Shown: piece after piece, positions 1 through 46,846 of the stretch
Layout of the letters: each line of letters begins with the position of its first letter
Position numbering within the stretch: the stretch's first letter is position 1
The notes under the pieces: model-generated
Told to the model about the DNA's origin: nothing
Database searches by the model: none
Seen by the model: the letters and a program-made list of their open reading frames with translations, nothing else
Source: Cyanophora paradoxa CCMP329
Taxonomy: Eukaryota > Plantae > Glaucophyta
Direction: 5' to 3'
Length of the DNA: 64,000 bases
NCBI GenBank assembly: GCA_004431415.1
Contig: QPMI01000483.1
Coordinates: forward strand, 62,001-126,000
Position numbers and translations under genes: made by a program

Positions 1-33
1 GACGAGGGGGAGAAGAAGGTCGCGTTCGACGCA

Positions 34-5691: not shown

Positions 5692-8600
5692 ATGTCGCGA
5701 TCCGCCTCGCGCGCCCGATCGACTGGGAGACGGACGACCCCGTGCTCCCCGACTGGGACGTTGAGGCTCTGCGCCCGGCGCTGATGTGGGACGCGGTCCA
5801 GAACAAGGGCGCCGCGCCCTCGGCCCGGCGCAGCCTGACTGCGACGGCGGCTGTCGATAAGGAGGCCGAAAGCCTTCTGGTTCGCACGCCGTACCAGCCG
5901 ATCTACGAAGGAGCGGTCCGCGCGACGTGGGCGGGCGTGCGGTTCCAGCCGCCCTCAACCATCGTCGGCGGGCTCGCGGACGACCCCGCCGAGGCGGCGC
6001 CATCCGCCACCCCGTCGGCGCCCGCGCCGGCGCAGGCCGCTGCGCAGACCGCCGCGCCGCCGACGGCGCCGCAGCAGGCGCGGCCCCGGCGCAACGCGGG
6101 CCAGGCCGTTGGCCGAGGCGGCCGCGGGCAGGGTCACCAGCGGGGCGGCCGGCACCGCGGTCGCGACGGCCGAGGCCACCGTGACCGTGGCGGCGACCGC
6201 GGCGGTGGCCAGGCGCAACCCGCACAACCCGCTGTCGACCCGAACGACCCGTTCGGGCTGGATGCGTTCCTCGCGCGGCAGCAGGGGTATGACCCCAAGA
6301 CCATGCGCGTAACCGTCTCGGACGGGAAGGTGAAGGTCGAGCGGATCGCCGAGAGCGCTCCGCCAGACCAAGCCCCGCCGGCTGAGACTCCCTCCCGGAC
6401 CTTGATGCCGCCGCCCAGCTCGAGCCGCCAGGCCGAGGCAAGCTCGAGCCGCAGGGACGACACGGCCAGTCGCGCGTCGCAGGCCCGCCGGACCCCTGAG
6501 CGGGCCTCGTCTCAGCGCCGCTCGCGCACACCCGAGCCGCGCCGAGCCCCGTCCAGTCGCCGCTCTCGCACCCCAGACAGGCGCGAGACGCGGGGCCCCT
6601 CCACGCGCCGCGAGCGCTCCCCGGAGCCCCACCGGCAATCCCGGGCGCCGCCGCCGTCCCGCCGTTCGTTGGAACGCCGCGATCGCGAGGGCTCCCGACG
6701 CCCTTCGCCGGACCGCCGGGACCGCGAGGCCTCCCGCCGCCGCTCCCCGGACCGCCGTGATCGCTCGCCGCCGCGCCGCGACCGCAGCCCGCCGAGCCGA
6801 CGGTCCACGGCTCGCGACACTCGCGACAGGCGGAGCCCTCGCCGAGGCTCGCGGGAACGCCGCCGGAGCCGAACACCGTCCCGCTCTAGCTCCCGCTCGC
6901 GCTCGCGCGATCGGGGCCCGAGCCGGAGCCCCCGCCATGACGATAAGCGGCGCAAAAGCTCGAAGAAGGGCTCGCGCGACCGCGCCTCGCCGCGAGACCG
7001 CCGCAGCCCTCGCAGCAGCCAGTCCTCTCGCCGCCCGCCGGACCCGCCGCGCGGCGCCGTAGACGCTGCGTACAAGCGGCACGAGAACGACGCCCGCCTG
7101 CGAGGCTGCCCGCCCACATTGCGCGAGCTCTTCGACATGGTCTGGAAGGCGCAGTACGCTGAGATGCCAGACTCGCTCTCGGCGTCCGCGCGAGCTGAGC
7201 AGGCCACCGCGCTGGTCCTGATCAAGCTCCAGAACCAGATGGACGCTCAGTCCGCGTCGTCCTCGGCCCGCGCCGCCGCGCCACCATCGGGTGGGCAGCC
7301 GCCGACGGGCGGACGCAACGAGCGCCAGCAGCCCTTTCTAGAGGGGCCTGAGGGGCAGAGCGAAGCCGGTCCGCAGTCGGCGGCGCCGTCCAAGCCTGCG
7401 GAGGGTCGCGCCTCCATCTCTCAGGCCCAGGAGCGGTCATCGCGTGCGAGCCAGGCCGAGCCGCCGCGCGCAGACCAGTCGACGCCGGAGCAGCCGCGCG
7501 CCTCAGTGGCCGCGCCGCGCGCCTCCGCCGCCACGACTTTCAACCCCCAGGCTGACGTCCCAGCAGGGGGCCTCCTGCAGTTTGTGCGCGAGTGCTCGAG
7601 CTGCCGCGACGTGAAGATCCGGGGCCAAGGGGTCACGGAATTGGGGCTTTGGCTTCAAACAGTCGAGCGCCAGATCCGCACCGCCGCTAGCCACGCCGAG
7701 ACGCGCGCCAAGCCCGGCGGCGCTCAGAAGGTCTCAGACGAAGCCTTCGCCCAGGCAAAGCAGGCCGCTCGGCGGGCCCTGGAAGACGTCTGCCGCGCCC
7801 TCCGGGCCGGCATCGATATGCAGATCAGCCTCTCCGCTGGGGAGACGGGCATGATGATCTCGCTCCTCCCAGACGGGCCCCGTGCCGATCTCGAGGCTCT
7901 GCGGGCCACGCTCGATCGCACCAAAGACTGGCGAGCCTTGCTTGAGCGCGAGCGCCAGCACGAGGCTCGCGTGGCAATGCAGGCCGCGGCAAAAGCCAAC
8001 CCAAAGCCCTTCTTCGCGGTATACACCGTCGCAGAAGCGTCGTCACCCCGCGGGCACGAGGCCCGCGCGCCCTGTGACCTTCCCGCCCACTTGCATACGC
8101 CGGCGTCGGTCCGGGCCGCTGTGCCGGTGCCGGCGGACGAGAAGTACATCTCGATCCGCCGCGTCCAGACGGTCGTCCACGAGCCGCCCGCTCAAACAGT
8201 CGCGCCGCCGGCGCCAGCCGCGCCGCCCGCCCCGGCCCCACCAAAGAGCCGCGAGCCTGCGCCGGCCTGGGCCCGCCGCCTGCTGCACAAGCTCGGGCCG
8301 CGCTCGACCGTGCTGGTCTTCAACTGGCTGTCGAACCCCGCGCAAATGCTGCAGGTCGATCCAAAGACCCTGGAGCCCGCCTTACGCGCGGTGCATCAGG
8401 CGATCATGGACCGCTACGGCATCTCGATGCGCAAAACGGGCTACAAGGCCCCGCCACGGCCGACTCGCGCGTGGTTCTCGGGTTCAGCGCCGACAGCGGC
8501 GTTCGCCCCGCAGAACGCGCTCGAGGCCGCCGCGATCATTTACCCCGAGGGCCTGACCTCCGACGAGGAAGCTCTCATGCCCGCGGGCCACGCCCTGGGC

Positions 8601-9398
8601 TCCAAAAACCGCCCGTCCCTCGCCGTGCCCCGCCCGGCAGAGGAGACGCCGCTGGGAACGCGCGCCGGCTATGACCCGCCCAGCGACGAGTTGCTCTACG
8701 CCAACCGCCACGGCCCGGGCCCGCGCAAGCGGACCAAGCCCTCGCCGTTGGCCGACCAGGCAGAGCAGCGCCGAGTCGCCGAGCGAGCCGCGGCTCGCCA
8801 GTCCCGGCCCCCATCCCCAACCGCAAGCGCAACGGACCTGTCGGGTCCACCCGCGCCGCCGGAACCAGAATTCCACGTCCGCCGCGCCCGACCTAGCTTC
8901 CCGCGCGACCGGGCCCTGGAATTCTTCCGGCCAAAGACACTGCACATTCACGGCAGCATTGCTATGCGCCTGCCGAACGGCCGCTCCGGCGCTGAACGGC
9001 CCGCTCGCATTGTTGTCGACACGGGCGCCCAGGGAACTGTAGTTCCCCAGGAAGTCCTCGACCGCCTGCCGCCCGACGAAGTCAATTACGTCGAGGGCCA
9101 CACGATAGTCCGCGGTTTCATGGACCGGGACAAAATTCGTTGTCGCCGCGCCGACGTAGTCTTCGTTCTGGGCTCGCTCCGCTTCTGCCGCCGCGTCTTC
9201 GTCGTCCCGCGCGGCGCCATGGGCGTTGAGCCGGACATTCTGCTCGGCCTGGACGCGATCCAGGCCGTCCACGGCCAGATCGACACGACGCTGTCCGGGT
9301 GGTGCCTCCGGGCCCGTGACCACCTGCACCGCGAAGTCGTCGTCCCTTTTCGGCTCCGGACCAGCTTGGGATCCTGGTCCGAGTCCTGGGACCAGTAA
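5664..9398 (+). CDS. Gag-position protein with RGG and RS-rich domains fused to a retropepsin protease
   Basis: RGGRGQGHQRGGR tract, long RS/RD tract, then RIVVDTGAQGTVV...DILLGLD aspartic protease motifs. Confidence 0.8.
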   Translation: MLRSLYADLNVAIRLARPIDWETDDPVLPDWDVEALRPALMWDAVQNKGAAPSARRSLTATAAVDKEAESLLVRTPYQPIYEGAVRATWAGVRFQPPSTIVGGLADDPAEAAPSATPSAPAPAQAAAQTAAPPTAPQQARPRRNAGQAVGRGGRGQGHQRGGRHRGRDGRGHRDRGGDRGGGQAQPAQPAVDPNDPFGLDAFLARQQGYDPKTMRVTVSDGKVKVERIAESAPPDQAPPAETPSRTLMPPPSSSRQAEASSSRRDDTASRASQARRTPERASSQRRSRTPEPRRAPSSRRSRTPDRRETRGPSTRRERSPEPHRQSRAPPPSRRSLERRDREGSRRPSPDRRDREASRRRSPDRRDRSPPRRDRSPPSRRSTARDTRDRRSPRRGSRERRRSRTPSRSSSRSRSRDRGPSRSPRHDDKRRKSSKKGSRDRASPRDRRSPRSSQSSRRPPDPPRGAVDAAYKRHENDARLRGCPPTLRELFDMVWKAQYAEMPDSLSASARAEQATALVLIKLQNQMDAQSASSSARAAAPPSGGQPPTGGRNERQQPFLEGPEGQSEAGPQSAAPSKPAEGRASISQAQERSSRASQAEPPRADQSTPEQPRASVAAPRASAATTFNPQADVPAGGLLQFVRECSSCRDVKIRGQGVTELGLWLQTVERQIRTAASHAETRAKPGGAQKVSDEAFAQAKQAARRALEDVCRALRAGIDMQISLSAGETGMMISLLPDGPRADLEALRATLDRTKDWRALLERERQHEARVAMQAAAKANPKPFFAVYTVAEASSPRGHEARAPCDLPAHLHTPASVRAAVPVPADEKYISIRRVQTVVHEPPAQTVAPPAPAAPPAPAPPKSREPAPAWARRLLHKLGPRSTVLVFNWLSNPAQMLQVDPKTLEPALRAVHQAIMDRYGISMRKTGYKAPPRPTRAWFSGSAPTAAFAPQNALEAAAIIYPEGLTSDEEALMPAGHALGSKNRPSLAVPRPAEETPLGTRAGYDPPSDELLYANRHGPGPRKRTKPSPLADQAEQRRVAERAAARQSRPPSPTASATDLSGPPAPPEPEFHVRRARPSFPRDRALEFFRPKTLHIHGSIAMRLPNGRSGAERPARIVVDTGAQGTVVPQEVLDRLPPDEVNYVEGHTIVRGFMDRDKIRCRRADVVFVLGSLRFCRRVFVVPRGAMGVEPDILLGLDAIQAVHGQIDTTLSGWCLRARDHLHREVVVPFRLRTSLGSWSESWDQ

Positions 9399-10408
9399 AG
9401 CTCCCCGTCGGAGAGGCCCTCGTCCCATGCACGCTCAATGGGCAGGGCCCGGCAACGCGTGAGTTGCCGCACCTCTACGTCGAGCCGTCGCCGGAGTCCC
9501 CGCAAGCCTTGGGCGTACTCTGCCCTTACCAGCTGCATAATCACCCGGGAGACAAAATGTTTCACGTGCGGTTGTGCAATCCTGGCCGGCAGCCGGTAAC
9601 CCTGCCGCTAGGATCGGTAGTAGCGGTCGCTTCGGCGGTCGCCCTACCGCCTGGTGATTTTGAGTACGAACCTGAGCAAATGCCTTGTAGTGCGAGTGCA
9701 TTGACAGACCTCTTGATTCGCCGGCTGCGAATCGTGCCTGCCAAACGCCGCACTGGACTCCGCCACTTTAATAGAAAAGCACGCATGCTTGGCGCGGCAT
9801 ATGAGCCCGCCAAAGACGTTGAGAAAATAATCTCCACCCTACGTTCTGTCGTAGATGAGGCGGAAAAGCAGCGCGCTCTGTCTAGCGCAGCGCCTGCTGA
9901 GCCCGCCGACCCACCCCGCGCACCGCCCTACGACGTCGACGATATAGTCGTCACGTTTGGCGAGCTGCCCTTCGACACAGCCGACCGGCCGTTGCAGGAC
10001 CTTGATGCTATGAGCATCATTAGCCTCGACGACGATGCTATGAGCACGTCGTCACGAAGCGCGTCCCCAACGCCGGCCCCGATCACAGGCCCCTCGGTCG
10101 ACGAGTTCGTCGCCGCAGTCGAGGCAGTGTCCGTCCCAGAGACGCCACCCTGCGCTCGACCTTCCCCGGTCTCTCCGAAAAAGCGGAGCGCGACTTGCTC
10201 GATGCAGTCCGCGCCATGCGCGGCGACGTTACGGTCCGCAAGGCCGCACCGGTCGCCGACGCCGAGGCCCCACCCCAGAGTGTGGTCACAGCCTCGCTTT
10301 CGGCCCGGCCCGATGCCCCACCCCCTACGACTGCAGCACCCGACGCGAAGCCCGCTGAGGCACCGCGGCCGGTGCCTAATGCAGAGGAGGAGTGGCAAGA
10401 GCTGCTGA
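9374..10408 (+). CDS. Pol segment: degenerate dUTPase-like domain plus linker
   Basis: VLGPVKLPVGEALV...FHVRLCNPGRQPVTLPLGSVVAVA resembles the dUTPase-like fold found between PR and RT in some gypsy elements. Catalytic motifs are not evident. Confidence 0.45.
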   Translation: MVRVLGPVKLPVGEALVPCTLNGQGPATRELPHLYVEPSPESPQALGVLCPYQLHNHPGDKMFHVRLCNPGRQPVTLPLGSVVAVASAVALPPGDFEYEPEQMPCSASALTDLLIRRLRIVPAKRRTGLRHFNRKARMLGAAYEPAKDVEKIISTLRSVVDEAEKQRALSSAAPAEPADPPRAPPYDVDDIVVTFGELPFDTADRPLQDLDAMSIISLDDDAMSTSSRSASPTPAPITGPSVDEFVAAVEAVSVPETPPCARPSPVSPKKRSATCSMQSAPCAATLRSARPHRSPTPRPHPRVWSQPRFRPGPMPHPLRLQHPTRSPLRHRGRCLMQRRSGKSC

Positions 10409-11715
10409 AGAAGATTCCTGAGCTCGGCTCTCACCCGTCAATCACGACGGCGCAGAAAGCCGAACTTCACGCGCTCCTGCGGCGCTACAAGGATGTCTTC
10501 GCAGACAAGGTCGAGGCCAAAGAGGGCACCAGCAACCTGCTCTATTACGAGCACGTGATCAAACTCACGACTCGCCTTCCGGTGTTCACGCCTCCGCGGC
10601 GTATGAACCCGCACGCCGAGGAACACGCCCGCAAGGAAATTCAGAAACTCCTTGAGCTTGGGCTGATCGAGCCCTCCCAAGCGGCATATGGCTCGCCGGT
10701 AGTGCTGGCCCCCAAAAAGGACGGCACTTGGCGTTTCTGTGTCGACTATCGGAGGCTGAATCAGATCACCGAGCGGGACGTGTTTCCCCTACCCCGCATA
10801 GACGACCAGCTCGAGCGCCTCCGCGGCTCGATGGTCTTCTCGACTGCTGACGCGACTGCCGGCTTCTGGCAGCTGCCTCTGCACCCCGGCTCCCGAGCCT
10901 ACACTGCATTTGTGGTCCCCTGGGGTCACTTTCAGTGGAAGGTTACGCCGTTTGGGGTCACGAACGGGCCCGCGGCATTCTCCCGCGCGATCACTGCGAT
11001 CCTGGGCCCCTTGCTGACCACCTGCGTCGTCGCGTACATCGACGATATCACGGTCTTCTCACCGTCCATCGATCAGCACCTTCTAGACTTGAAGGCGCTC
11101 TTCGAGACGATCTCTAAGGCGAACCTGCGCCTGAAGCCGTCGAAGTGCCGCTTCTGCGTGCCTGAAATCGACCTTCTCGGCCACCGCATCTCCGCCGAAG
11201 GGATCCGCCAGGACCCTGCGAAGACCAAGGTGATCACGGACTGGCAGACGCCGAAGAACGCGGACGAGCTCCGCTCGTTCCTCGGCCTCGCCGGCTACTA
11301 CCGCCGCTTTGTCGAGAACTTCTCCAAAGTGGTGCACGCCATGCAGCGCCTTCTATTGAAGGACGCCGTCTGGAGTTGGCCAGAGGACGGCCCCGCCGAC
11401 CGCGCCTTTAAGGAGCTGAAAGAACTCCTGGGCCGCGATATTATATTGCGGTTCCCGGACTTCTCGAAGCCCTTCATTCTCCAGACGGACGCCAGCACCT
11501 ACGCTATCGGCGCAATTCTGAGCCAGGCCGACGACAAAGGCGTCGAGCGGCCGCTCGCGTTCATCAGCCGCACGCTGCTGCCGGCCGAGATGAACTACTC
11601 CGCTACGGAGCTGGAGTGCCTCGCAGTAGTCTGGGCCATTAAGTATTGGCGCCACTATCTGCTGGGCGGCCCCAGTTCCTGGTGCGGACCGACCACCACG
11701 CCCTCCAGTGGCTGA
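10195..11715 (+). CDS. pol: Reverse transcriptase and RNase H (Ty3/gypsy)
   Basis: PKKDGTWRFCVDYRRLN, FPLPRIDD, GFWQ, PFGVTNGPAAF, YIDDI, LGH, FLGLAGYYRRFV, TDAS, NYSATELECLAVVWA. Confidence 0.97.
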   Translation: MLDAVRAMRGDVTVRKAAPVADAEAPPQSVVTASLSARPDAPPPTTAAPDAKPAEAPRPVPNAEEEWQELLKKIPELGSHPSITTAQKAELHALLRRYKDVFADKVEAKEGTSNLLYYEHVIKLTTRLPVFTPPRRMNPHAEEHARKEIQKLLELGLIEPSQAAYGSPVVLAPKKDGTWRFCVDYRRLNQITERDVFPLPRIDDQLERLRGSMVFSTADATAGFWQLPLHPGSRAYTAFVVPWGHFQWKVTPFGVTNGPAAFSRAITAILGPLLTTCVVAYIDDITVFSPSIDQHLLDLKALFETISKANLRLKPSKCRFCVPEIDLLGHRISAEGIRQDPAKTKVITDWQTPKNADELRSFLGLAGYYRRFVENFSKVVHAMQRLLLKDAVWSWPEDGPADRAFKELKELLGRDIILRFPDFSKPFILQTDASTYAIGAILSQADDKGVERPLAFISRTLLPAEMNYSATELECLAVVWAIKYWRHYLLGGPSSWCGPTTTPSSG

Positions 11716-13118
11716 AGACGCTGGACCCGACGACGGGCCGCCTCGGTCGCTGGTCCCTGCTCTTGCAGGCCTACGACTTTGAGATCGTCTACCGCCCTGG
11801 CAAGCAGAACGGGGGTCCCGACGCGTGCTCGCGTCTCCCTAAGGACCACCCCGTCTGGCAGCCAGGCGGTGCAGACGGTTCCTCGTCCAAGCCCGCGGCC
11901 TACAAGGGCGCCGAAGGCTTCGGCATCCCGCAACATGCTGTAGGGGCTGAGCCTGAGGATCCCGACGTCCCGCTGGGCATCTTTAGGATGCAGCTGGGCC
12001 CGACCGAGCGGGCCCTGCGCCAGCTCGCCAACTCCGCCGGCTTCCGCGCGGAAGCCCCAGCCGAGGGTGGCCGAGCCGCTAGACGCCGAGCGCCCCGGGC
12101 GGCGCCTGCGAGCGCCCCCTCTTCCCCGCCGGGCCGCTCCTCTTATGCAGAGGAGGAGTCGCGGCCCCCTGTGCCAGCCAGTGCTCCTGAGGCCGAGCCC
12201 GACGCCGGCGCCCCTGAAGCGCCCGCGCCCGAGCCTGAGGGTGAGGCTGGCGGTGCTGCGGAAACCGATTCCGACGCCGAGCCCCCGCCGCCAGAGCGCG
12301 CGCCGCGACGCCTGCCCCGCGAGCTCGCCAAGCTTGCTGCGTCGGCTGGGTTCGCTGAGGCCAAGGCCTCCGCCTCGGCTACTGACGCCGCCACGCGCAA
12401 GCGAGCGCGGGCCGCCCCAGAGCGCTTCGCGCCTCCCGCGCCAGAGTCGGTCTCGCCGCCCCCGAAACGACGAGAGCCGGGCCCGGCGCCCGCTGTCGAG
12501 GAGCGCGAGGCTCCCTCGGACGCGGAGATGCCCGACGCCCCTGAGGGCGACCTGGGCGCCCCGGCCGCGCTGCTAGAGGACGCTCACGCAGAGGCCGAGG
12601 CCTCGGGCGAGATCGATGACGAGTCGCTGCCGGAAGGGCCTGTCCCCTCCGACGCCTGCGACGCTGACGGCTTCCCCCTCGCTCTTGCGGAGCGAGTCCC
12701 GAAGCGCTCGGAAACCGGGCCCCGTCGGTGGGGCGCCAAGGGATTTGCCGAGCCGCGGCCCCTGCATCCCGACGCGCTCTTCCCTCGCGGCCCCGCCTTG
12801 AGGCGGCAGCCTCGAGATGAGTACAACACGCGCCACTGGCGCTCCCCGGTCGACCCCTCGGATCGGCCGGTGCCGATTCATATTGAGTGGGAGCCGGAGG
12901 ACCCTGAGGGCGAGCCGCCTCCCGGGCCTCCGCGCCGACGCTCGCTCTCCCCGGAGACTGCTCGCCACCAGATCCGCGTTCGGCCGGTCCCCCGGACCCC
13001 AAGCCAGCGCCGCGGGCTCGAGGTCGCCCCTCTGCCCGCGGGCAGGCTTCCGACGACGCCGCCCCGCTCGAGCCTGAGACGGTCGCCGCCGAGGCCGCTG
13101 CCCCGCAGCGGTGGGTAG
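11646..13118 (+). CDS. RNase H C-terminus plus ~400-aa Pro/Ala/Glu-rich linker
   Basis: TDHHALQWL...RLGRWSLLLQAYDFEIVYRPGKQNGGPDACSR followed by low-complexity sequence. Confidence 0.85.
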   Translation: MAPLSAGRPQFLVRTDHHALQWLKTLDPTTGRLGRWSLLLQAYDFEIVYRPGKQNGGPDACSRLPKDHPVWQPGGADGSSSKPAAYKGAEGFGIPQHAVGAEPEDPDVPLGIFRMQLGPTERALRQLANSAGFRAEAPAEGGRAARRRAPRAAPASAPSSPPGRSSYAEEESRPPVPASAPEAEPDAGAPEAPAPEPEGEAGGAAETDSDAEPPPPERAPRRLPRELAKLAASAGFAEAKASASATDAATRKRARAAPERFAPPAPESVSPPPKRREPGPAPAVEEREAPSDAEMPDAPEGDLGAPAALLEDAHAEAEASGEIDDESLPEGPVPSDACDADGFPLALAERVPKRSETGPRRWGAKGFAEPRPLHPDALFPRGPALRRQPRDEYNTRHWRSPVDPSDRPVPIHIEWEPEDPEGEPPPGPPRRRSLSPETARHQIRVRPVPRTPSQRRGLEVAPLPAGRLPTTPPRSSLRRSPPRPLPRSGG

Positions 13119-13168
13119 AACTCGACCCTAGAGGCCGGGACGTTCGCCCGCCGTGCAAGCCGGTCTTC

Positions 13169-14829
13169 GTGGATACCGTCCTCGACGCGTGGGCCTGCGG
13201 ACCCTCGCCAGCCGTCGATGGGGCGCTCCCCGACGCGCTGCGCCGTATGTTCCCGCCCGAGAAGCGCAAGCGTCTGCTCGCCGCTCAGAAGGAGGATTCC
13301 TTCTGCAAGAAGCTTCTCGCCTTCCGCGCAGAGGGCGAGAATCCAACTGTCTGTACCCGCGGCTCGAGGCGCGACGCAGATCCCTGCTCGCCCAGCTGCG
13401 CTCACTGCCTGCGGGCCAAGGAGCGCTTTGCACGCCTGGCCGGCGAGTTCAGCCTGGCCGACGACGGCGTCATCGAGCGCAACCCCTTGGTCCCTGCCGG
13501 CCGGTTCCTACCCGTCTTGCCGGACGCTTGGATCGACAGGGTGCTCTACGCCTATCACGAGGGCTGGGCCCATCGAGGCGCGCCCGTGATAGCCCGTCGG
13601 ATCGCCCTGCGGTTCTGGTGGCCTGGCATGTACGCCTCCATCGCTCGCTTTGTGCGGTCGTGCCCGCACTGTCAGTTCGCGAAGGCCGCGAAGCCCCGCC
13701 GTACCGCCATTCAGGTGATACAGCCTTCGGGCAAGGGAGACCTGTGGCAGGTGGATATCTTCCACTTGGATATGCACGAAGACGGTTCGCGATACATCAT
13801 CGCGTACGTCGACGCATACACCAAGTTCTGCTATATCTACCCGCTCTCCCGTATCTCCGGCGAGGCCTTGCTCGCCACCGCGATCGACTTCTATACGCAC
13901 GAGGGCGTGCCCGCGCGCATCCTGACGGACCGCGGGTCCCAACTCGTTGGGGGCGCGTGGAACGCGTTCTTCAAGGAGAAGGGTACCCGGTTCGTGCACG
14001 CGGCCGCCTACCACCACGCCTCGAACGGCGGCGCCGAGCGCCTGGGCGGAGTCTACAAGACTCTCGCTTACGCCATGTGCCGTGAGCACAAGCGGCCGCT
14101 CTCTGACTGGCCTCTTTACAACGCCGATATCGTTCTCGCGTTGCGGACCACCGTGCACTCCGCCACCGGGTTCTCCCCGATGGTCTTGCACCGCGGTTCT
14201 GAAGTGCACCTGCCCTGCGAAGTGCGCTTCGGAGCCGGCGTCCGCTTCGTGAACCCCGACCACACGCACCCGGCTGATTACCTTCTCGCGATGACGCGAG
14301 CTGCCGCGAGCGCCGACGCTGCCTCGCGCGAGTACCGTCGGTTCTATCGGAACCGCATGGTTGCTCGCACCGGCAACCCGCCTCATCGTCGCCGCTTTGA
14401 GGTTGGCGACAAGGTATTGTGCTGGATGGGCGAACACAACAAAGGGCTGTACAATTCGTGGTCGGGCCCTACACTGTGACTGGTGTTAACCCTGGCGGTT
14501 ACACCTACACGGTCAAGGGGTCGGCTAAGCCCTACTCCGCCAAGGACGATGCCCGTACCCGTCCTCTGCGTGAGACTGTTGCCCACATCGACTGCATGCT
14601 TCCGTTCCGCACGCGTCTCTCCGAGTCTCAAGCCCGTCCCCGCGTTGGTCGGCCTCGGAAGACTGCTGTGAACGCCGACGAGCCGGCGATCGACCCCGCA
14701 CTCGCGGACTCGCCCGCTCAAGAACAAAATCCACCTCTCGCCCCTGACGTCGACGCCGAGGGCCCCGAGCGGGCTGCCGAGGGCGACGAGGTTGAGATGG
14801 ATGACGCGATTTTGGTCGACGACCTGTGA
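13169..14829 (+). CDS. Integrase (HHCC zinc finger, DDE core, GPY/F motif; frameshift near 14465)
   Basis: YHEGWAHRG...WWPGM...CPHCQ; WQVDI...ILTDRGSQ...NGGAERL; TGFSP; GPYTV continues in the 14419-14829 frame. No chromodomain seen. Confidence 0.95.
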
Positions 14830-15505
14830 GAAGCTCGTCCCATTGCTGTTCCCTTTGCGATCGCTGTGCTTGCGCCGTGGGGCAGATTTCTTTGCCCGCT
14901 TTGCCTCAGCCCTGGCTTCCGAGGTGGGACGTGGGTTGGCTGGTGGCCAATCACGGGGCGCCATCTGGGCCTTTCGTTCCATTTTCTGGGATCTGGGCCC
15001 GTCGCTCGTGGAGAGTGGCTGGGTGTAGGCCTCCCGGGTGCCTGCGGGTCCGTGAGGGGCTCGAGGTTGCTGGCTGGGGGTGCACTCAGTCGTGCCCTAT
15101 CCTTTCGTTGGGCCTGATGGGCGGCCCGGATACCTCCTCGCTGGTTTCTTCCCGAGGCGGTGAAACTTCCCATCCGTGCCACTCTCCTTCGGCTCTCGCC
15201 GTTGGAGCGAGTTTGGGCCAGCTTTTGGGGGTTTCGAGTTCTATGCTTTTCCATCTTTCGAGCTTGGCCTGGGGTTGCCTAGGTACATGCACTATGCTGG
15301 TATCGGCTCCTATTTCGGTCGCGAGCTATGCTACCTGGCATATCTGGTTGCTGACGACGGACATTCTACTTCGAGAGGAGTTCACTCGCCGCCGCCCTGT
15401 CGCTGCCGTGGTTGGTGCACACCCCGGCGGTGGGTGGACGCCCCGTCGAGCATGCAGACTCGACGTTCGGCTTGGCGCGGTCCGGTGCGAGGACGCACCG
15501 TATGC

Positions 15506-15516
15506 AGAGTGAGGAG
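15506..15516 (+). promoter_or_regulatory. Polypurine tract (plus-strand primer)
   Basis: AGAGTGAGGAG immediately before TGT, preceded by the hairpin CGGTGCG-AGGA-CGCACCG. Confidence 0.65.
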
Positions 15517-15517
15517 T

Positions 15518-15773
15518 TGTCGCGTGCCGCGATTCCCTCGGATTAGGCTAGCCGGCAGTCTATGCGTAGCCGCTAGCCCTAGTCTAGTGCTATCGAGCAG
15601 CTAGCTCTAGCACTCTCTGTATTCTGACTTAGCGCCGGGCGCGACTCCGTTTGGGGGTACGCGATCCCTGGACGGGTACACTTGTGAATAGACCACTTGT
15701 GCTCCCAGCTACAGCCCCAGCCCGTGCGTGACCGCACGGACGCTGCACCGGGTGGGAATCCTCTCATCCGACA
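15518..15773 (+). repeat. 3' LTR (256 bp)
   Basis: Starts TGTCG, ends CGACA (5-bp terminal inverted repeat), follows the PPT and ends exactly at the GC drop. The 5' LTR is not in the window for confirmation. Confidence 0.75.
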
Positions 15774-15983
15774 TATTGCTCTGCTTCTGTTCAGGATTGG
15801 ATTGATAATGCTGCCCACAACAGAGCAAGAATTGCAATTGATGAGATTGTTCAGAAAGAGATTCAATCTTGCATTGCAGCTGGGATTCAAATACCATCCT
15901 CAAAGGAGGCTATTGTTTTACAGGCTTTCCAAAGGGGAACTGTCAAAAAAGGTATCGAGTATAACAATGTCACAGAAGAGTAG
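15774..15983 (+). pseudogene. 5'-truncated small phage-like protein interrupted by the LTR
   Basis: Frame absent from the ORF track: YCSASVQDWIDNAAHNRARIAIDEIVQKEIQSCIAAGIQIPSSKEAIVLQAFQRGTVKKGIEYNNVTEE*. From memory it resembles small hypothetical proteins next to tail-fibre genes in aquatic phages (QDW.DNA..NRARIAIDEIV...IQIP). Confidence 0.7.
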
Positions 15984-16040
15984 CAGAGCTAGCGCTATAG
16001 CTTGTCTGCAGCCTATTTTTTTCTCTTTCGTTTCTATTAA

Positions 16041-16889
16041 ATGACCGAGTACAACCGAGTCCAGTTACCAATCTACTCACTGGGCTCTCCAGCAATCCAT
16101 ATGAGGCAGCATGAAGTTAGCGATGCCATTGCTGGATTAGAGTCCACTGAGCGTCCAAACTCAACTAATGCATTTGATCAGCGATCAGTGATTCGCTGTA
16201 AAGAATTACGCGCAGATAAAAACTCTGGGGTTGTCAAAACAACTCGATTACTGGTTACGAACGCAAATTTCTCCCAGCCCATAACAGGAGGAGTTGACTC
16301 ATATAGTGTTGACCTTCGAAGCATAAACTATGATCAAAACACTGCTGCCCTCACTGTGCGCTCCGGAGGAGCAGCTATTACCGGAGCCTGCCGAGTTAGT
16401 GGGGGCCTATCATCATCGATTGCCATCAATGATGTCCCAGACTTTTCATTAGAGAATGCCGAAAATCGTAAACGAGTTCGCATGTATGTACCTTGCTGTG
16501 ACCTTCCCTATGCACAAGCTCTAGTAGAAGTTGAAATAACCATAGCTAATTCAAGTACACCAAATGGTCTGGATGGTGAGAGGTTGCTTTCAAACAGAGA
16601 AATCCCTAAAGCATTACAATCTCTCTGTCAGGATCAAAATGACCAGATAGGGCATGTGTATACGTTCTTTGTGCAACGTCTTGGACATGCTGGGCGGGGA
16701 TACGTAGTTCGTAATATTAATACAAGGCACCTTTTCGATTTATATGCTACTGCGATAGGCCGATACTCTATCCTAATCATCGGCTATCGCTCCGATGTGG
16801 CTGCATCAGTGGCTACTAGAGGGCTGAACGTTGATCCAGCACTGAATAATATGTATGAGGAAGGCAATCCGGAAAATCCTATACCTTAA
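16041..16889 (+). CDS. Virus fibre-like protein, paralog 1
   Basis: ALTVRSGGAAITGACRVSGG beta-repeat-like motif and C-terminal GRYSILIIGYRSDVAA. Clearly paralogous to the next ORF. Confidence 0.6.
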   Translation: MTEYNRVQLPIYSLGSPAIHMRQHEVSDAIAGLESTERPNSTNAFDQRSVIRCKELRADKNSGVVKTTRLLVTNANFSQPITGGVDSYSVDLRSINYDQNTAALTVRSGGAAITGACRVSGGLSSSIAINDVPDFSLENAENRKRVRMYVPCCDLPYAQALVEVEITIANSSTPNGLDGERLLSNREIPKALQSLCQDQNDQIGHVYTFFVQRLGHAGRGYVVRNINTRHLFDLYATAIGRYSILIIGYRSDVAASVATRGLNVDPALNNMYEEGNPENPIP

Positions 16890-16917
16890 ATGAAAGTTTT
16901 ATCTTCTGTTTTCTAAA

Positions 16918-17841
16918 ATGGAAGCTGTTGAAAGAATAGTAGTTCCATCGTTGACCCTCGCCGCTCCAGCCAACCACGTCCTGCAGCATGCAGTTTCAGA
17001 CGATGTCCCCGGCCTGCAATCAACTGAGCAGCAGCCAACTCTAAACACCTTCCGAGATAATCACATCATACGTTTAGGAGAGGTTAGATGCGACAAAAAT
17101 AATGGAGTGGTCAAAACAACAAATCTTGTCGTAACAAACGCAAACTTTAATGCGCATTATGGGGATCCTGATAGCTATGATGATGCTAACAAGGTTAACA
17201 CTTTTACCTATGAATCAAGATTAGGGGCTGTTACCTGCAGGTCCGGAGGTGCTTATATTGGAGATGGCCTGAGAGTGGGTGGAGCTGCTTGCGCCCCTAT
17301 ATTTGTAAATGATCAACCTAACCCTGAAAACACTAATGAAAGAATCAGAACGTATGTTCCTGGTATGAATTTGCCTTATATCATCAAAGTCTTCACGCTA
17401 AACATAAATGAGCAAACATCGATCGTAGATAACGTTCAGCCACTCGGAAATCATTTCAAGAGTGTTGTTGATATTCCCCCGGATATCTATTTCCTTTGTA
17501 GGAGAAACGATGCTCTCCGGCCAAACATAGCTGTTTTAATTAATCCTATTGACAATTTTGGTGTCGCTTTCCATTCTACCCCAGTGGGGGTTGAAGATTA
17601 CCAGTTTATTGTGAGGGCTACGCTTATGGGCGCCTACAAAAATATTCTATTTGCTGAAAGAACAGATGTGATTGCAAGCGGGGTCAAGTATGGTGAGACC
17701 TTCAATTCGAATCGTTACTTTCCAATTGGAGGGGCTGATCCCAACCATAGAATCTTTGTTTTTATATATATTACCCCTTGTAGATGGATCTGCTCCGTAA
17801 ATGCATGGACATGTTCCATCTCAACGTCACCAGCAAATTGA
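16918..17841 (+). CDS. Virus fibre-like protein, paralog 2 (true stop probably ~17750)
   Basis: Shares QH.VSD...GL.STE, DKN.GVVKTT.L.VTNANF, RSGGA.I, R.R.YVP..LPY and G.Y...L...R.DV.A with paralog 1. CCCAACCATAG near 17741 would give a PNP* end like paralog 1 with one added base. Confidence 0.6.
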   Translation: MEAVERIVVPSLTLAAPANHVLQHAVSDDVPGLQSTEQQPTLNTFRDNHIIRLGEVRCDKNNGVVKTTNLVVTNANFNAHYGDPDSYDDANKVNTFTYESRLGAVTCRSGGAYIGDGLRVGGAACAPIFVNDQPNPENTNERIRTYVPGMNLPYIIKVFTLNINEQTSIVDNVQPLGNHFKSVVDIPPDIYFLCRRNDALRPNIAVLINPIDNFGVAFHSTPVGVEDYQFIVRATLMGAYKNILFAERTDVIASGVKYGETFNSNRYFPIGGADPNHRIFVFIYITPCRWICSVNAWTCSISTSPAN

Positions 17842-18128
17842 AATGCAGTTGCTGCGAGACAACTATCAACCTCGAAATATCTGACACTGAGGGCTCACGC
17901 ACCCCTGATACTCAGCTATCGCCTAATAACACACCCGGGACTTCTAGGTCCAATTCTCCTTTTACGCGATCTGATTCACCTATACCATGGCTTGATTCTG
18001 AAAGCCGAAGATCGTCTTGGCCACCCCCAAATATCCCGAAGCCCCTGAAAAGAAAGAAGTCCTTGCTATCAAGTTTCAGAAAGGAGAAGACTCCAGTTTC
18101 CGAAAAGCAACCAGATCAAGTGGAATGA
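17784..18128 (+). CDS. Small hypothetical protein (KLKCSCC motif, Ser/Pro-rich, basic tail)
   Basis: 114-aa ORF with an AT-rich leader in the low-GC island. Confidence 0.5.
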   Translation: MDLLRKCMDMFHLNVTSKLKCSCCETTINLEISDTEGSRTPDTQLSPNNTPGTSRSNSPFTRSDSPIPWLDSESRRSSWPPPNIPKPLKRKKSLLSSFRKEKTPVSEKQPDQVE

Positions 18129-18258
18129 GGCCGCACCAGACCGCTAAAAGGGGCCCTAATTCCTTGCCTTCGGCTTGTCTGCGACCCAGTTAACGCCTTG
18201 ATAGTCCTCGCGCTGCGCCTCGCGTTTCTTACTAAAGTCACGCCTATAGATATTGCTG

Positions 18259-18456
18259 AACGCGTTTCCTCAGTTAGCTCGATGCACACATTTATTTCGT
18301 CTAGCTATACCTTAACGCTTTTCCTCGTTTAGCTCCTCTATACACATCAATTACATCTAGCTAGAGCTTAACACGTTTCCTCGTTTAGCTTCTCTGTACA
18401 CATTAATATCGCCTAGCTATAGCTTAACGCATTTTTCTCGTTTAGCTTCTCTGTAC
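18259..18456. repeat. ~55-bp tandem repeat, about 3.5 copies
   Basis: Units begin 18259, 18314, 18370, 18426: AACGC.TTT.CTCGTTTAGCT.CTCT.TACACAT...CTAGCTA.AGCTT. Confidence 0.9.
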
Positions 18457-18558
18457 TCGCCCTCACGCCCTCCATTCTCCATATCCATGCTTTTCCCATC
18501 AACACATCTACTTGGAGCACGTCTAAAAATCTTTCAGGGAAATTGTTGATCGATGACG

Positions 18559-19709
18559 CTAGAAGGGGTGGATCCCTGAAGGTAAAACCAGACTAGTCGG
18601 TGGTCTGGTTTGGGGTGGGGTCCTCCCCTTTACAACAGAGGCTGGCGGAGCGACAGTCGTGGAGCGGCGGGAGACATCTTTCCACGGGAAGGTACGGAGT
18701 AGCCACGGGACTTCAAGTAAGAAGTTTGCTACCGCAGCGTTGCACGCCTGCACGTCGTTGAGCAAGGCAGCCGGCGGCTGGTGTTTCATCGCCAGATCCT
18801 TGACTTCCTTTGCCGCCCTCCGGGCCTGTTTGAAGTTATCCATCTTGGCGAGCTGGTAGTCACCGAGGGGGTAACGTCCACTTTCCAGGTCCCGGGCCGC
18901 GATCATTTTCTTGATAACGTCATACACCTCCATCGGTGTAGGTTGGCCTTCCAGCTTGCAGACTAGACCCGCCCCACGAAGCTAAGAATCTTGGCGACGG
19001 TGCTGACCATCTCCGGGAGCGGGTAGCCGTTGTAAGCCTGAAGGAGGACCGTCTGTGTGCGGAAGCGCTCCTGTTCCGTAATGTTGATGGCCACCCAGCG
19101 TACAAGTGACGGGAGTCCGCGGATGCAGTGGTCGCTCTCGAGCTGGTAGGTGATGTTCCGAATCGTTCGCTTGATTGTGTCACGTTTAGTCAAAAGCCGT
19201 TGGCGTGTGTTGCGCGTGTCCCGAGACCGGTCCGCCACGTCCGGGCCCTTCTCCCAAACATGGTCAGTGACTGCGTCAGCCGCGTCGCGGTGCTCCTCCT
19301 TGGCCTTGGCAAGGTCACGGGTAAGCTGACCCGTCTGGTTGATCATGTCGTGGATGGAGGCCTGGTACTGCGACGGGAGCGCCTTGGCCGCCAGAGTAGC
19401 CCCCGCGAGTGCGAGCTTCGAGCCGTCGTCGGCGTCGGAGTATCGCTTCGTGTCCCTGTCGATTGCGCGCTGCGCGTCGTCTCGCCAGGCGGCGACGCCT
19501 TGCGGCGTGAGCGGGTTGCCCGGACTGGTGATGCAGATGCCGCCGCCGCAGTCAATGAGGATCGGCCGCTCCGTGTTGGACAGCGCGTTGAGAGCTTCAC
19601 GTTCCGCTGAGGCGTTGGAGGTGACCGCAGCAACGTCCGTCAGCTCTTGAAGTAAGGTGTTGGTCGCCGAGCGCCGGCGCGGCGCGTCGTCGAAGTGCCT
19701 GGAGTCCAT
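18559..19709 (-). CDS. Orphan intronless helical protein (~380 aa, one frameshift near 18970)
   Basis: ORF 19709-18963 joins ORF 18933-18559 by a shift in a G run (…ILSFVG / AGLVCKLEGQPTPMEVYDV…). Confidence 0.5.
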
Positions 19710-19929
19710 CGTGTCTGCACGCGGCAGAGACGGAGGAAACCGACGCGGAGCCGAGAGGCGGAGGCGAGGAGGCGAGGGATCCGGCGCGGCGTCGACGCGC
19801 GACGGCGGCCGGGACCGGGGCGAAGTGAAGCGGGCGGGGAGGTGGTGCCGGCGACGAACGAGCGTCGGCTGGCGAGCGGGCGGGGCGTGGCGAGGACGGC
19901 GGCGTCGGGTGAGAGCCGGGGCGCCGCGA

Positions 19930-20730
19930 GTAGATCACCGGCCGGGCTTCCACGCGGGAAGGCCGGCTGCGAGCTAAGATCTCCTCCGGGGCTCGTAGCG
20001 TCCGCAGCGAGGCGGAGGCGAGGGAAGAGCCGAGGGGAGAGGGCGGGAAAGGGCGACGGGGGCGGTTCGAGGCGCCGCACGTAGATCACCGGCCGGGCTT
20101 CCACGCGGGAAGGCCGGCTGCGAGCTAAGATCTCCTCCGGGGCTCGTAGCGTCCGCAGCGAGGCGGAGGCGAGGGAAGAGCCGAGGGGAGAGGGCGGGAA
20201 AGGGCGACGGGGGCGGTTCGAGGCGCCGCACGTAGGTCACCGGCCGGGCTTCCACGCGGGAAGGCCGGCTGCGAGCTAAGATCTCCTCCGAGGCTCGTAG
20301 CGTCCGCAGCGAGGCGGAGGCGAGGGAAGAGCCGAGGGAGAGGGCGGGAAAGGGCGACGGGGCGGTTCGAGGCGCCGCACGTAGATCACCGGCCGGGCTT
20401 CCGCGCGGGAGGGCCGGCTGCGATCTGAGGTCTCCGCCGAGGCTCGTGGCGTCCGCAGCGAGGCGGAGGCGAGGGAGAGCCGAGGGGAGAGGGCGGGAAC
20501 GGCGGGTAACGGACGGCGCGGCGTCGTCGAGCGACGGCGGCCGGGAAAAGGAATGACGGGTGCGGAAATCGATGTCGGCGACGTATGGACGTCGGCCGAC
20601 GGGCGGGAGTGGGCGGGAAAAGCGACGAAGATGGAGGTCCGAGGAGCCGAGGGAGGGTCGCCGACCGGGCTTCCACGCGGGAAGGCCGGCTGCGATCGGT
20701 GATCTCCGGCGAGGTTCACGTGTCCGCAGC
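19930..20730. repeat. ~151-bp GC-rich tandem repeat
   Basis: GTAGATCACCGGCCGGGCTTCC recurs at 19930, 20081, 20232 and 20381, with a degenerate copy near 20660. Confidence 0.92.
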
Positions 20731-21669
20731 GCGGCGGAGACGTGGGCGGGAGAAAGTTGGGGCGGGGGAAGTGATCGCGAGGTAAGTCCGCAGCTGAGCG
20801 TCGGCGGTCCACCGGCGAGTCGAAGGGCTGAATCCGCCGGAAATTTTGGCAGAGTCTCCCCCTTCGAAAGGCCGAGAAGTGCGCGGCGCTGAAGCGGGCG
20901 GCGGGGCGAGGTCGGTCGGTCGATGTCGGTCGGTGACGGGCGCGTCCGGTCGACGATCCGCCGTTTCCGAGCGTCGCCGATGCCACTAGCAACGATTCCG
21001 CGTCCGGCGTGGGACGGGGGCGTGCCAGTCGATTCCCGCAGACTGCGGATGCACGGGGCGACCGTTAGCGAGTCCGGCGTCGGCGTGCGGCGGCGGATTC
21101 GCAATACTGTCCTCCGAAACGCGCTCCTCCGTCCACGGATCGCTTCGCCCAGCGGTCCGACCACGCCTGGCTGCGGCTGGCGGGTCGGATGGCTGGACGA
21201 GGCCCGGCGAGGGTCAGAAGAGCCTAGTTTACGGTGCGGCTAGGCTTAGCCATGCGTGCTGTGCAGTTCTAGCAAGCTGGCGGCGAGAGCGAGCAGAGCT
21301 GGTATTCCAGGAGCAAGCGCAAGTACAGGGTACAAGTGTGTGTCCCGGGGTGTGAGCCCGGGAGGGGTACATGAAAAGTAGTGGGGGTCCAATCGGCGCA
21401 CTCATTGTGAGCGCTGCGGAGACTAAGGCCAAGCACTGCGAGTAGCGAGACTCGGGGCGCCGGCTCCTGACGGCCTAAAGCCGTGAGGCAATACACCAGC
21501 TTCGAATTCCAGCCAGCCATTTGGCCGGGCAGCGCGCTGGCCAGTGCGCTAGGCCTAGGCTGCCAAGGCCTACTGTGACAGCCGCGAGAGCGTCCGCGAG
21601 GCTTCGCCGTACTTAGTGCTCCGCAGGAGCACGGATCTTGTAATTTTTTCCCAGGTGCGCGCCCGAAAC

Positions 21670-21745
21670 TCCGACCGGATTCGAACCCGGGTTTTTTTGA
21701 TACTGCTAGACGGCGACCCCCGACACCCATTGGACGCCCTTTACC
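21670..21745 (-). pseudogene. Second degenerate tRNA-like sequence
   Basis: Minus strand GTCCAATGG ... ACCCGGGTTCGAATCCGG (canonical B-box). Confidence 0.35.
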
Positions 21746-21971
21746 CGAATACCCCCCTCACAGGTCTCCCGATTCGTCGAGCCTTGTCATTTCCGAAATC
21801 CTCTCCACATTCCCTCCGCGTCAGATTCTGATTGGTCGGTGCCCTATCCTTCTCCTCAATCAAATCATATGCATATATCCTCGACCACTTCGCACGGGTT
21901 AAGGCCTCGAAATCCACCTTCGATTCTATCGGTGACCAATCGGTGCCCTGTCCGTGCCCTTAGGAGGGAAT

Positions 21972-22043
21972 CGTCCCAGCCGGATTCGAACACGGGCCTT
22001 CGACCCCCGGAACCGAGAATCCTAACCGCTAGGCTAAAACCGC
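21972..22043 (-). pseudogene. Degenerate tRNA-like sequence (tRNA-Glu-like)
   Basis: Minus strand TAGCCTAGCGGTTAGGATTCTCGG...CCCGTGTTCGAATCCGG has A-box and B-box at tRNA spacing. The acceptor stem does not pair. Confidence 0.5.
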
Positions 22044-22450
22044 AACCGAATCGGAATTTCTCAGGCGGGTATTTGAACCGCTTCCCACCCACGACTCGGA
22101 AGGAAGGTGGGACCCTGGAAAACTTTCAAGCCGCCCCGCGACACAGTGCGGCGCCGCAGCGAGCACTGCAAGCGGCGCAGCGCATGCTCATGATCGCTAT
22201 TCTAGCGCTGGAAGGGTCGAATTCATGGTCGCAGTCACCCCAAAATTTCGGAATCACTATCAGTCACCCGAAAACTTGATTCAAATGCATGGACCAGCCG
22301 ATTCCTGTCCGCCAACGCGCGAGAGCAATGCGTATAGATGCGCATAGACTAAATAGAGCGTGTGCCGTCCCTAAATTCGCCTTCGAGCCCCGCCACAGCA
22401 CGAGAAGGCGCGCGAACTGCAGAAAAATGCGATTGTGCACTCTCCCATCG

Positions 22451-22772
22451 ATCTTTCCGCGCGCCCACGCCGCAGCGCGTGCGCGGAGCAATAGGATAAG
22501 CATTTGAGATATAGAGCAAGCATTCCCCATGCTTTGCAGATGCGCCGGGCCGCGAGAGCCCAGAAGACCCCGAAAATTCGATCCTGAACGTACCTGCGCA
22601 TCTTTCCGCGCGCCCTCGCATCCTCACTTATGCCCATCGCTACAGTATTCATTTCAAAGCTTTTCAAAGCTTTGCGCAAGCTCGTCGGCGCGAAAGAGCA
22701 CGGGAATCCAGCCGACGCCAAACTTTCAATCCTGGACAAACCTGCATATATATCTTTCCGCGCGCCCTCGCC
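22451..22772. repeat. Degenerate ~150-bp periodic repeat
   Basis: ATCTTTCCGCGCGCCC at 22451, 22600 and 22752. Confidence 0.75.
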
Positions 22773-23273
22773 TCCACAGCCCTGCAGATCGATACTATAT
22801 GCATTTGAAATTCTGTTTAAGCGGATCGCAGGCTCTGCGCATGTGCATGACAACGAGAACCCCGCTCCGGCCCTCTCAGTGCACATGTACATGTCCTTTA
22901 TTAATCTAGTGCATATGCATGCAAGGCCGTTATTAATCTAGACTCTGGGATCTCCTACCCCAATATTGATACCGCCCGCACTGCATGCAGCTGGCAATGC
23001 AATCTAGCTCTCAAGAAAAATCAATGTCCTTCTCCTCTCGCTCTTGCGCGATCGGGGGGCCCGGGGGAGTCGGGGGACGAGGCGGACGGGAGTGACGGGG
23101 CGGGGGGGGGGGGGGGGGGGGGGGGGCCTTCCCGCGTGAGCGGGGTGCTTGTTATAATATTACACTAACGTTATATATAATATTATTATAACGATTAGCG
23201 TATTATAAATAACGGTCCATAGAGAGGGCACCCCCGCAGCTCTCAGTACAACTCGAAAACGTTAGAAAAGGGA

Positions 23274-26200: not shown

Positions 26201-26618
26201 GTCCATGAGCTCATCGCCATCGGCGTCTCCGCCTTCCTGGCCAGCGCCTTCCTCAGCAGCGCCAGGCTGGGCTGGCGTTGCGAACGGGTTGAACTCCTGT
26301 TCCGCCATCGTGTGGCGCACTTCTCTGCGCATCGTCGTGTCGGTTAGACAACTGGTGCGGAATCGTGCCGGGCCTGGAGCTTGGCCGGTTAACTGGCCGT
26401 CCAGAAGACGTGGCATCTCATTTCAGGACAGGGGGTCCTGTGATTGCGGCAAAGGCCTTTGCGGCGACAAGCAGTGGCCTTTCGGCGGATTTGAGCCATC
26501 GGGCGGGCGCGAGGCACGCTAGAGGTCTCACCAGCGCAGACACTGGCTCCCACAGTGTGTAGGCGTCGTGTCGGCGCGGGTTCCGGCGCCTCGTGCTCCT
26601 TTTTCGGGGTACCGGAAT
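23274..26618 (-). mobile_element. 3.3-kb insertion bounded by a 14-bp direct repeat (putative TSD); ORF1-only non-LTR-like element
   Basis: CGTTAGAAAAGGGA at 23260-23273 and 26619-26632. GC-rich interior between AT-rich flanks. Confidence 0.65.
23742..26308 (-). CDS. LINE ORF1/gag-like protein (frameshifted)
   Basis: Acidic N-terminus (MAEQEF...), chained ORFs, knuckle-like CRRHRLQAYFEHKSSKC, RGRGRG tracts and a Q-rich end. No EN/RT. Confidence 0.5.
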
Positions 26619-27870: not shown

Positions 27871-27971
27871 CTGACAGCCAGTGATCATGACAGGCAGTGA
27901 ATCATGCTGATCCGATGAGCTGATCATGAATCATGATCATGATCAGGCTGACGTCGACAGTAACTCGACAC

Positions 27972-46705: not shown

Positions 46706-46846
46706 CCTTCCGGAGCACTGGCCAGGGTAAAGTGAGCGCGCGCGGATCGCGCACGTGCGAGTACATCGGAGGCGTACCAGGGTCGCTTGACTCCAGGGAC
46801 GTTGTTCTAAAAGGAGACAGTAAGTTTGAGTGCCGCTGCGATTAGT
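46706..46846. repeat. Direct partial copy of the PsbQ-like gene (intron-microexon-intron)
   Basis: Near-identical to 48335-48480 (CCTTCCGGAGCACTGGCCAGGGTAAAGT...GCTGCGATTAGT). Confidence 0.9.

Follow-up and report, generated by a model that had tools for sequence, protein, structure and literature searches.

A 64,000-nt stretch of DNA deposited under Cyanophora paradoxa CCMP329 (Glaucophyta; assembly GCA_004431415.1, contig QPMI01000483.1, positions 62,001 to 126,000 of the forward strand) was analyzed. This stretch is called the window below, and all positions refer to it. It carries a GC-rich retroelement on the plus strand, which ends with a long terminal repeat (LTR) at position 15773, and a low-GC island, which opens at 15774 with a small open reading frame (ORF), ORF-S, and contains two larger genes, ORF-A and ORF-B. 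A third repeat, again GC-rich, follows the island. The three nested elements are all multi-copy. A preliminary description of this locus had proposed a retrotransposon nested inside an endogenous DNA-virus-like element.

The LTR end and the interrupted gene

Public assembled contigs of one organism were placed on positions 14000-21500 for four sequencing runs (X1, X8, X16, and X19) and on positions 15440-15860 for two; 24 runs were available, and 18 of them contained at least half of the sequence words of the region. Summed contig depth does not give true copy numbers and was used in the form of ratios, with single-copy-looking contigs at about 54 in X1.

The 3' LTR (15518..15773, plus strand; 256 bp, TGTCG...CGACA) was delimited by a contig start, depth, a branch, and the terminal inverted match, its terminal 20 nt being 70% complementary to each other. 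In X1, a contig begins precisely at 15518 with a depth of 2949, against 1329 in the retroelement interior just upstream, and the LTR (2949-3295, its core 2960-3295) is 2.2-2.7 times as deep as the interior (1206-1329). One of the two LTRs per element was thus observed directly, and the second is deduced from the depth. The depth steps at the right end of the LTR in X1 fit a branch between 15773 and 15774 (2604 vs 2612), and the four neighboring positions that were tried do not fit. A purine-rich run followed by a single T before the LTR (15506..15516, plus strand) is the likely polypurine tract.

The GC content is 0.62 in the 100 nt before the junction and 0.39 in the 100 nt after it, and the likelihood change point of GC falls at 15749-15789. 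The frame of ORF-S (15774..15983, plus strand; 69 aa, YCSASVQDW...) opens at 15774; the stretch from the preceding stop codon to this position contains no ATG, and one letter is common to both sides of the join. The LTR end CGACA therefore does meet an abrupt GC drop and the start of a headless frame, as had been described.

Homologs of ORF-S were found among phages. The tblastn search against GenBank phages matched 4 of the 50,697 records (identities over 57-64 aa), including hypothetical protein XLZ15521.1 of Limnohabitans phage DC33 (56%, E=2e-12) and QPX47975.1 of Synechococcus phage S-SRM01 (41.5%, E=3e-7), the latter having tail-fiber, virion-structural, and endosialidase genes as neighbors. 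ORF-S is accordingly described as homologous to a ~90-aa protein encoded in the tail-gene clusters of phages, with its N-terminal head missing. None of 14 candidates among longer proteins was confirmed as a homolog; the family is short, and its relatives were recovered by tblastn instead. In IMG/VR, 30 of 53 pattern matches were loci encoding ORF-S relatives, and the four loci that were inspected have tailed-phage-like neighbors by eye. A complete start was present in 29 of 32 loci, and all 29 homologs have 16-17 residues before the matching Tyr, the N-terminal codons that ORF-S lacks.

Uninterrupted copies of the gene were found in the public contigs. Contigs continuing before 15773 with non-LTR DNA numbered 5 in X1, 7 in X8, and 5 in X16, with none among the contigs listed for X19; one X8 contig carries 720 non-LTR letters upstream of 15773. 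The three loose-end consensuses, translated by hand, gave an identical ten residues in frame with ORF-S with only synonymous differences between them, and the ten residues resemble the N-termini of ORF-S homologs. Because of the N-terminal lengths of the homologs and the uninterrupted copies elsewhere, the LTR end is placed about 50 bp into a conserved gene. These results bear out the earlier claim that the retroelement ends inside a gene of the low-GC island, and very probably represent a true insertion of the retroelement into that gene.

The depth over ORF-S (15757-16007) is far above that of ORF-A and ORF-B, and in some copies divergence sets in behind 15874 or 15979 (the latter a loose end in X16). 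ORF-S therefore appears to be common to more variants of the element than the ORF-A/ORF-B pair. One presumed RNA run gave zero cover over 15757-18015.

The retroelement, the island, and the third repeat

The retroelement body lies to the left of the junction. A 1292-aa frame (5520..9398, plus strand) ends in a retroviral-type aspartic protease (PF13650, E=2e-4, which is below the curated cut-off) and, from its position, is probably gag. It is followed by a reverse transcriptase (RT) with RNase H (10024..11715, plus strand; PF00078, E=2e-35; PF17919, E=6e-34), the RNase H being carried on into a second frame (11643-13118), and by an integrase with an H2C2 zinc finger and an rve core (12908..14479, plus strand; PF17921, E=7e-14; PF00665, E=2e-12). 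About 700 bp of non-coding DNA separates the integrase from the purine run. Among solved structures, 4ol8 and chain 7q5b of Ty3 Gag-Pol come closest to the RT (E ~1e-73), all other PDB matches being at 1e-43 or weaker; this placement is by PDB sequence matches and not by a tree. Because the Pfam domains follow the order protease, RT, RNase H, and integrase and the RT is Ty3-like, the retroelement is, as judged by its sequence, a Ty3/gypsy LTR retrotransposon (Metaviridae). An identity as a Ngaro/DIRS element was rejected: an rve integrase is present, and no tyrosine recombinase (PF00589) was detected among the ORFs scanned.

The retroelement measures at least 10.2 kb (5520-15773), and more than 15.7 kb if the ORFs upstream also belong to it. 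Positions 1-5691 hold several plus-strand ORFs with neither a Pfam nor a PHROG match, one of which (2671-5691; 1006 aa) overlaps the gag-protease frame. The GC content at third codon positions (GC3) is 0.80-0.83 in the RT, gag-protease, and third-repeat ORFs.

The visible island (15774-18637, ~2.9 kb) has a GC content of 0.44 and a GC3 of 0.33-0.39. Behind ORF-S it contains ORF-A (16041..16889, plus strand; 282 aa, intronless) and ORF-B (16918..17841, plus strand; 307 aa as written), both of which are likely fiber-type genes. ORF-A is assigned as a paralog of ORF-B by similarity (35% over 266 aa, E=2e-40) and a common N-terminal domain; the assignment of ORF-B is from its relatives, this domain, and a weak fold match. 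Most aligned copies of ORF-B read otherwise after 17744, owing to a one-base difference. A T-rich run that closes with TAAATG or TAAAATG leads into the start of each of the two ORFs (16000-16043 and 16880-16920), and late promoters of large DNA viruses resemble such a run.

Searching ORF-B among 1.84 billion representatives yielded 7 matches, 5 of which were credible; P0005 and P0006 were discarded before alignment as low-complexity chance matches. P0001 and P0021 are 61-63% identical to ORF-B over ~270 aa. The remaining relatives match only over the first ~120 residues, where an alignment of 11 sequences has 13 invariant columns, and a profile of this N-terminal domain found 10 proteins among 4958 candidates. 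After the common N-terminus, P0002, P0003, and P0026 carry C1q heads, and the C-terminal half of P0007 matches the phage family phrog_34132 (E=6e-44). The named relatives are 29 gene models of Cyanophora paradoxa, some of them fragments, comprising 23 distinct sequences on 23 named contigs, and they make a glaucophyte the probable source of the window.

The ~120-aa domain itself (16041-16410 in ORF-A and 16918-17280 in ORF-B) has invariant H-x3-H and R-x2-E-x-R-x-D motifs. It occurs in P0001-P0004, P0007, and P0021-P0039 as well as in a few environmental proteins, fused to C1q, phage-type, and other heads, and no Pfam or PHROG family covering it was found. Viral fibers are built in this way, with exchangeable heads on a conserved N-terminus, and ORF-A and ORF-B may accordingly be virion attachment fibers consisting of an anchor and an exchangeable head.

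The best fold matches of ORF-B residues 150-250 are a domain of a cyanophage tailspike (Z 6.1, root-mean-square deviation 2.4, 69 aligned residues) and an H-type lectin (Z 6.1, root-mean-square deviation 3.0, 88 aligned residues); as Z scores below 8 are commonplace in a fold search, these matches are a hint only. The single-sequence fold of ORF-B had a pLDDT of 31. Every match in the ESM Atlas was below 0.9, the viral matches of Foldseek had TM-scores of at most 0.29, and the PDB fold search gave no outstanding capsid-type match, which excludes nothing. PHROG matches of the island ORFs were weak (E 0.01-0.4). ORF-A by itself gave no homolog among 1530 candidates and no match in the GenBank phages. 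In IMG/VR, none of the pattern matches was confirmed for ORF-A (1), ORF-B (1), P0004 (14), or three alignments (65, 90, and 17). The metagenome scans returned no match for the junction-side DNA pattern and none confirmed out of 42 for the ORF-A/ORF-B family.

The non-coding end of the island contains three to four imperfect 56-bp tandem repeats (18247..18456) and a 9-bp hairpin (18585-18611), after which the island closes with ...TTTACAACA at 18637. In each of the three DNA runs (X1, X8, and X16) there are contigs that begin at 18638, three diverged ones carrying 20-106 other letters before this position, and the X1 depth drops across 18637 from ~1100 to ~280-340. The right end was therefore set at 18637, within the GC change point of 18547-18639. 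The preliminary description had correctly recognized the island but had ended it at 18550.

The island end falls inside the minus-strand ORF of the third repeat (18638..21240, minus strand; left extent from contigs, right extent approximate), which amounts to about 5 single-copy units by depth (278-295 in X1). This ORF is split at 18971 in the window, where each of the three DNA runs has an extra base. The third repeat includes 151-bp tandem repeats (19877-20502), and its ORFs showed no Pfam or PHROG match above noise. At 21240-21500 the depth climbs again in the last bin (1464 in X1 and 1824 in X8), pointing to another high-copy repeat, possibly an LTR.

Identity of the island and alternative explanations

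The island is likely to belong to an endogenous Polinton-like virus (PLV), of which it would be the right arm. Its genes are compact and intronless, its GC content stands apart from that of the host, and its copies are many, traits that are typical of PLVs and not exclusive to them, and the CA end at 18637 would be compatible with an rve integrase. PMC12220804 reports phage-like fibers in PLVs of C. paradoxa, and its Table S6 contains 156 glaucophyte viral elements, with an A32 ATPase in 139, an rve integrase in 85, and RVT_1 in 4; tyrosine recombinases and virophage capsids number 0 in the 156 elements of that table. Five Cyanophora contig names that were tried did not occur in the two supplements of PMC12220804 that were searched. 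PMC8502044 mentions adintovirus-like sequences in C. paradoxa.

On balance, it is probable that a Ty3/gypsy element was inserted in a multi-copy low-GC element, likely a PLV right arm, and there interrupts a small gene of phage-tail type. A PLV copy would earlier have integrated into another repeat, resulting in a three-layer nest. The rve integrase of the retroelement would then have joined the LTR end ~50 bp into ORF-S of one endogenous PLV copy, so that the missing 16-17 codons would precede the 5' LTR along with a duplication of 4-6 bp, and the capsid, packaging, and replication genes would lie to the left of the retroelement. ORF-S may be an accessory protein of the ORF-A and ORF-B fibers. 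With the insertion, this copy of ORF-S would be inactivated and the virus would grow by more than 10 kb, probably becoming too long to package; given this length and the loss of ORF-S, this copy of the virus is more likely a target of the retroelement than its vehicle.

Several results weigh against this explanation. Regarding the insertion, no second LTR copy was found elsewhere in the 64-kb window, so the 5' LTR lies outside it and the LTR status was drawn from the contig data. No target-site duplication was seen within the window, the 5' flank also lying outside, and no contig bridging the LTR-island junction with 31 letters on each side was present among 16 of the 209 pieces. The GC3 of the integrase region is 0.51, in a stretch that crosses frames and is uninformative. 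Regarding the virus, no capsid, A32 ATPase, penton, pPolB or other polymerase, or viral integrase was detected among the window ORFs tested (17, 5, and 28, a selection). The relatives of ORF-S that were found come from tailed phages and not from PLVs, and the ORF-A/ORF-B family is untied to a capsid gene because no relative was found on any viral contig. The ORF-B model has a pLDDT of 46, and its beta-sandwich at residues 150-250 is a low-confidence prediction. The last 45 bp of the island have the depth of ORF-B and not twice that depth (1096 vs 1202-1225 in X1 and 600 vs 596-605 in X16), which is a misfit with a terminal inverted repeat of several hundred bp, since such a repeat should double it; no partner end of such a repeat lies in the window. 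Of the DNA-virus-like element proposed earlier, what stands is a separate multi-copy low-GC element with genes that have phage-tail-type relatives; hallmark genes were not among the ORFs tested.

The same undoubled depth argues against the island end being an LTR. For this reason, a possible 94-bp mini-LTR at 18544-18637, which reads TGTTG...CAACA and is preceded by a purine run, was discarded. The preliminary description had also allowed that the island ORFs might always accompany pol inside a further downstream LTR, an arrangement that is disfavored by the uninterrupted copies, the lack of a second LTR in the window, and the depth of the island end.

The copy numbers raise the main alternative, that the junction itself is multi-copy, with most of the ~20-25 copies sharing this flank, whether because the gypsy family prefers or targets ORF-S or because virus and retroelement were amplified as a unit. 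We regard it as unlikely but not negligible. In rough single-copy units, the retroelement interior amounts to 20-25 (22-25 in X1), the LTR to 55-61 in X1, and ORF-B and the island end to 19-23 (X1 and X16), and the near equality of interior and island in both X1 and X16 would be expected of a shared junction. Likewise, the depth steps at the 3' end of the LTR fit a single layer of junction contigs with no second layer, and among the contigs listed there are no many-contig loose ends behind 15773 or before 15518, where many distinct flanks might give one. A precedent exists in Cafeteria, where 91% of Type 1 Ngaro elements lie inside virophages (PMC8547959). However, intact copies of the gene are common (5-7 contigs per run), one diverged single-copy LTR continues into 2145 other letters, and the arithmetic yields the sum of empty and filled copies (~1700 in X1) and not the split between them. 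Flank contigs overlapping the LTR by 30 letters may also go unreported, and the loose ends considered are a subset beside 15 and 244 others. Moreover, an element of more than 10 kb in a virus of 15-25 kb would be hard to package. It is similarly doubtful that the locus represents a giant (>15 kb) glaucophyte gypsy lineage that is site-specific for one virion-accessory gene, or a ~20-copy composite traveling with the virus. If true, this would mean that an rve-integrase retroelement has specialized on integrated viruses and either knocks out the viral reservoir of its host or travels on it as a passenger.

The insertion may also be real while the island is something other than a PLV: an element that is degenerate or non-autonomous, a piece of a different endogenous DNA virus, or a transposon of the DNA type with captured fiber genes. 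The lack of hallmark genes among the ORFs tested, the undoubled end depth, and the failure of the IMG/VR scans to place the ORF-A/ORF-B family on a viral contig all suit this explanation, as does the modular character of the family, in which copies vary behind ORF-S (15979, X16) and ORF-S is deeper than ORF-A and ORF-B. It is nevertheless judged improbable, because three compact intronless low-GC3 genes pointing to virion attachment are difficult to account for if there is no particle, the visible part of the element is only 2.9 kb long, and PLVs carrying such fibers are abundant in glaucophytes (156 elements; PMC12220804).

That the junction is an assembly chimera of two collapsed repeat families is very improbable: the window does depart from all aligned contigs in three runs (e.g., at 16298, 16316, and 17580), lacks a base that much or all of the contig depth carries at 14459, 15226, 15431, 17744, and 18971, and has no bridging contig over 15773 among the pieces listed, and PMC10120064 warns of false consensus in such regions, but the join lies exactly at the last base of the LTR, as expected of an integrase, and its two sides share one letter, whereas a misjoin would need a long overlap. 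From the single-base gaps and private substitutions, some of the frameshifts in the window are probably assembly errors.

Comparison with known nestings and other features of the window

The preferred explanation, a gypsy element inserted in a probable PLV, has close counterparts, and the novelty implied by the preliminary description was overstated, as Ty3/gypsy or direct-repeat retroelements in PLVs already appear in PMC10120064, PMC12220804, and PMC12747079. A Ty3/Gypsy retrotransposon is embedded in a PLV of Hydrurus foetidus (PMC10120064); the two cases share a retroelement superfamily inside a low-GC integrated protist DNA virus, but that host is a chrysophyte and the PLV is complete with hallmark genes, whereas here the organism is a probable glaucophyte, only the right arm is visible, and the PLV identity is likely. 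GC-rich RT elements with direct repeats interrupt PLV genes in cryptophytes and ochrophytes (PMC12220804), and retrotransposons of 8.8 and 9.8 kb lie in PLV-27 and PLV-155 of Tyrannomonas regina, where target and shuttle roles were weighed (PMC12747079). These cases resemble the present one in their GC-rich RT elements, direct repeats of a few hundred bp, interrupted PLV genes, and phage-like PLV fibers; the inserts are 4-9.8 kb there and at least 10.2 kb here. In the portion of PMC12220804 used, glaucophyte cases appear as a count alone (RVT_1 in 4/156 elements).

Ngaro retrotransposons occur in endogenous mavirus-like elements of Cafeteria burkhardae, for which virus preference was measured (PMC8547959). 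There too a GC-rich retroelement breaks an AT-rich endogenous virus, but Ngaro has a tyrosine recombinase and split direct repeats, in contrast to the rve integrase and TG...CA LTR of the present element. In Halocafeteria seosinensis, viruses and transposons are nested (bioRxiv 10.64898/2026.07.28.741278), and viral elements in host repeats are themselves invaded, forming multi-layer nests as here; the invaders are MULE and LINE elements, unlike the gypsy element in the window. The small tail-cluster protein of Limnohabitans phage DC33 and Synechococcus phage S-SRM01 likewise adjoins fiber-type genes and is 41-56% identical to ORF-S over 57-64 aa, but it belongs to phages there and to a eukaryotic nuclear element here. 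No published gypsy element in a glaucophyte virus was found, in a search to which most subscription papers were out of scope and beside which supplementary datasets may hold cases.

The locus adds a probable glaucophyte to the protists in which retrotransposons are known from integrated viruses, and the example is base-precise and comes with an empty-site control. Whether such retroelements target, disable, or ride viruses is an open question in the papers cited here; with both intact and filled sites of a multi-copy LTR family present in a single genome, it becomes directly countable, and targeting demonstrated by a count of flanks would raise the importance of the locus. In addition, the fiber family, whose members keep one conserved anchor and exchange their heads, offers a useful marker of such elements.

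No tRNA was found in the 64-kb window and no Rfam match in positions 14000-30000. GC-rich frames on the minus strand at 30100-35640 show motifs that by eye resemble a nucleotide cyclase and P-loop ATPase gene, with no Pfam match at E 0.001 in two frames. Three near-identical segment copies of alternating orientation lie at 46718-48669, including a 304-nt inverted pair at 98%. A small ORF at 48445-48957 had no Pfam match; its Ala/Ser-rich N-terminus (MAF...) presumably resembles a plastid transit peptide, judging by eye. A fragment of a protein kinase gene (62907-63416; PF00069, E=1e-8) represents ordinary host DNA. Finally, tandem arrays with periods of ~150, 20-40, 33, and 151 nt were observed at 22424-22835, 40488-41234, 53229-54092, and 55062-55708, respectively.

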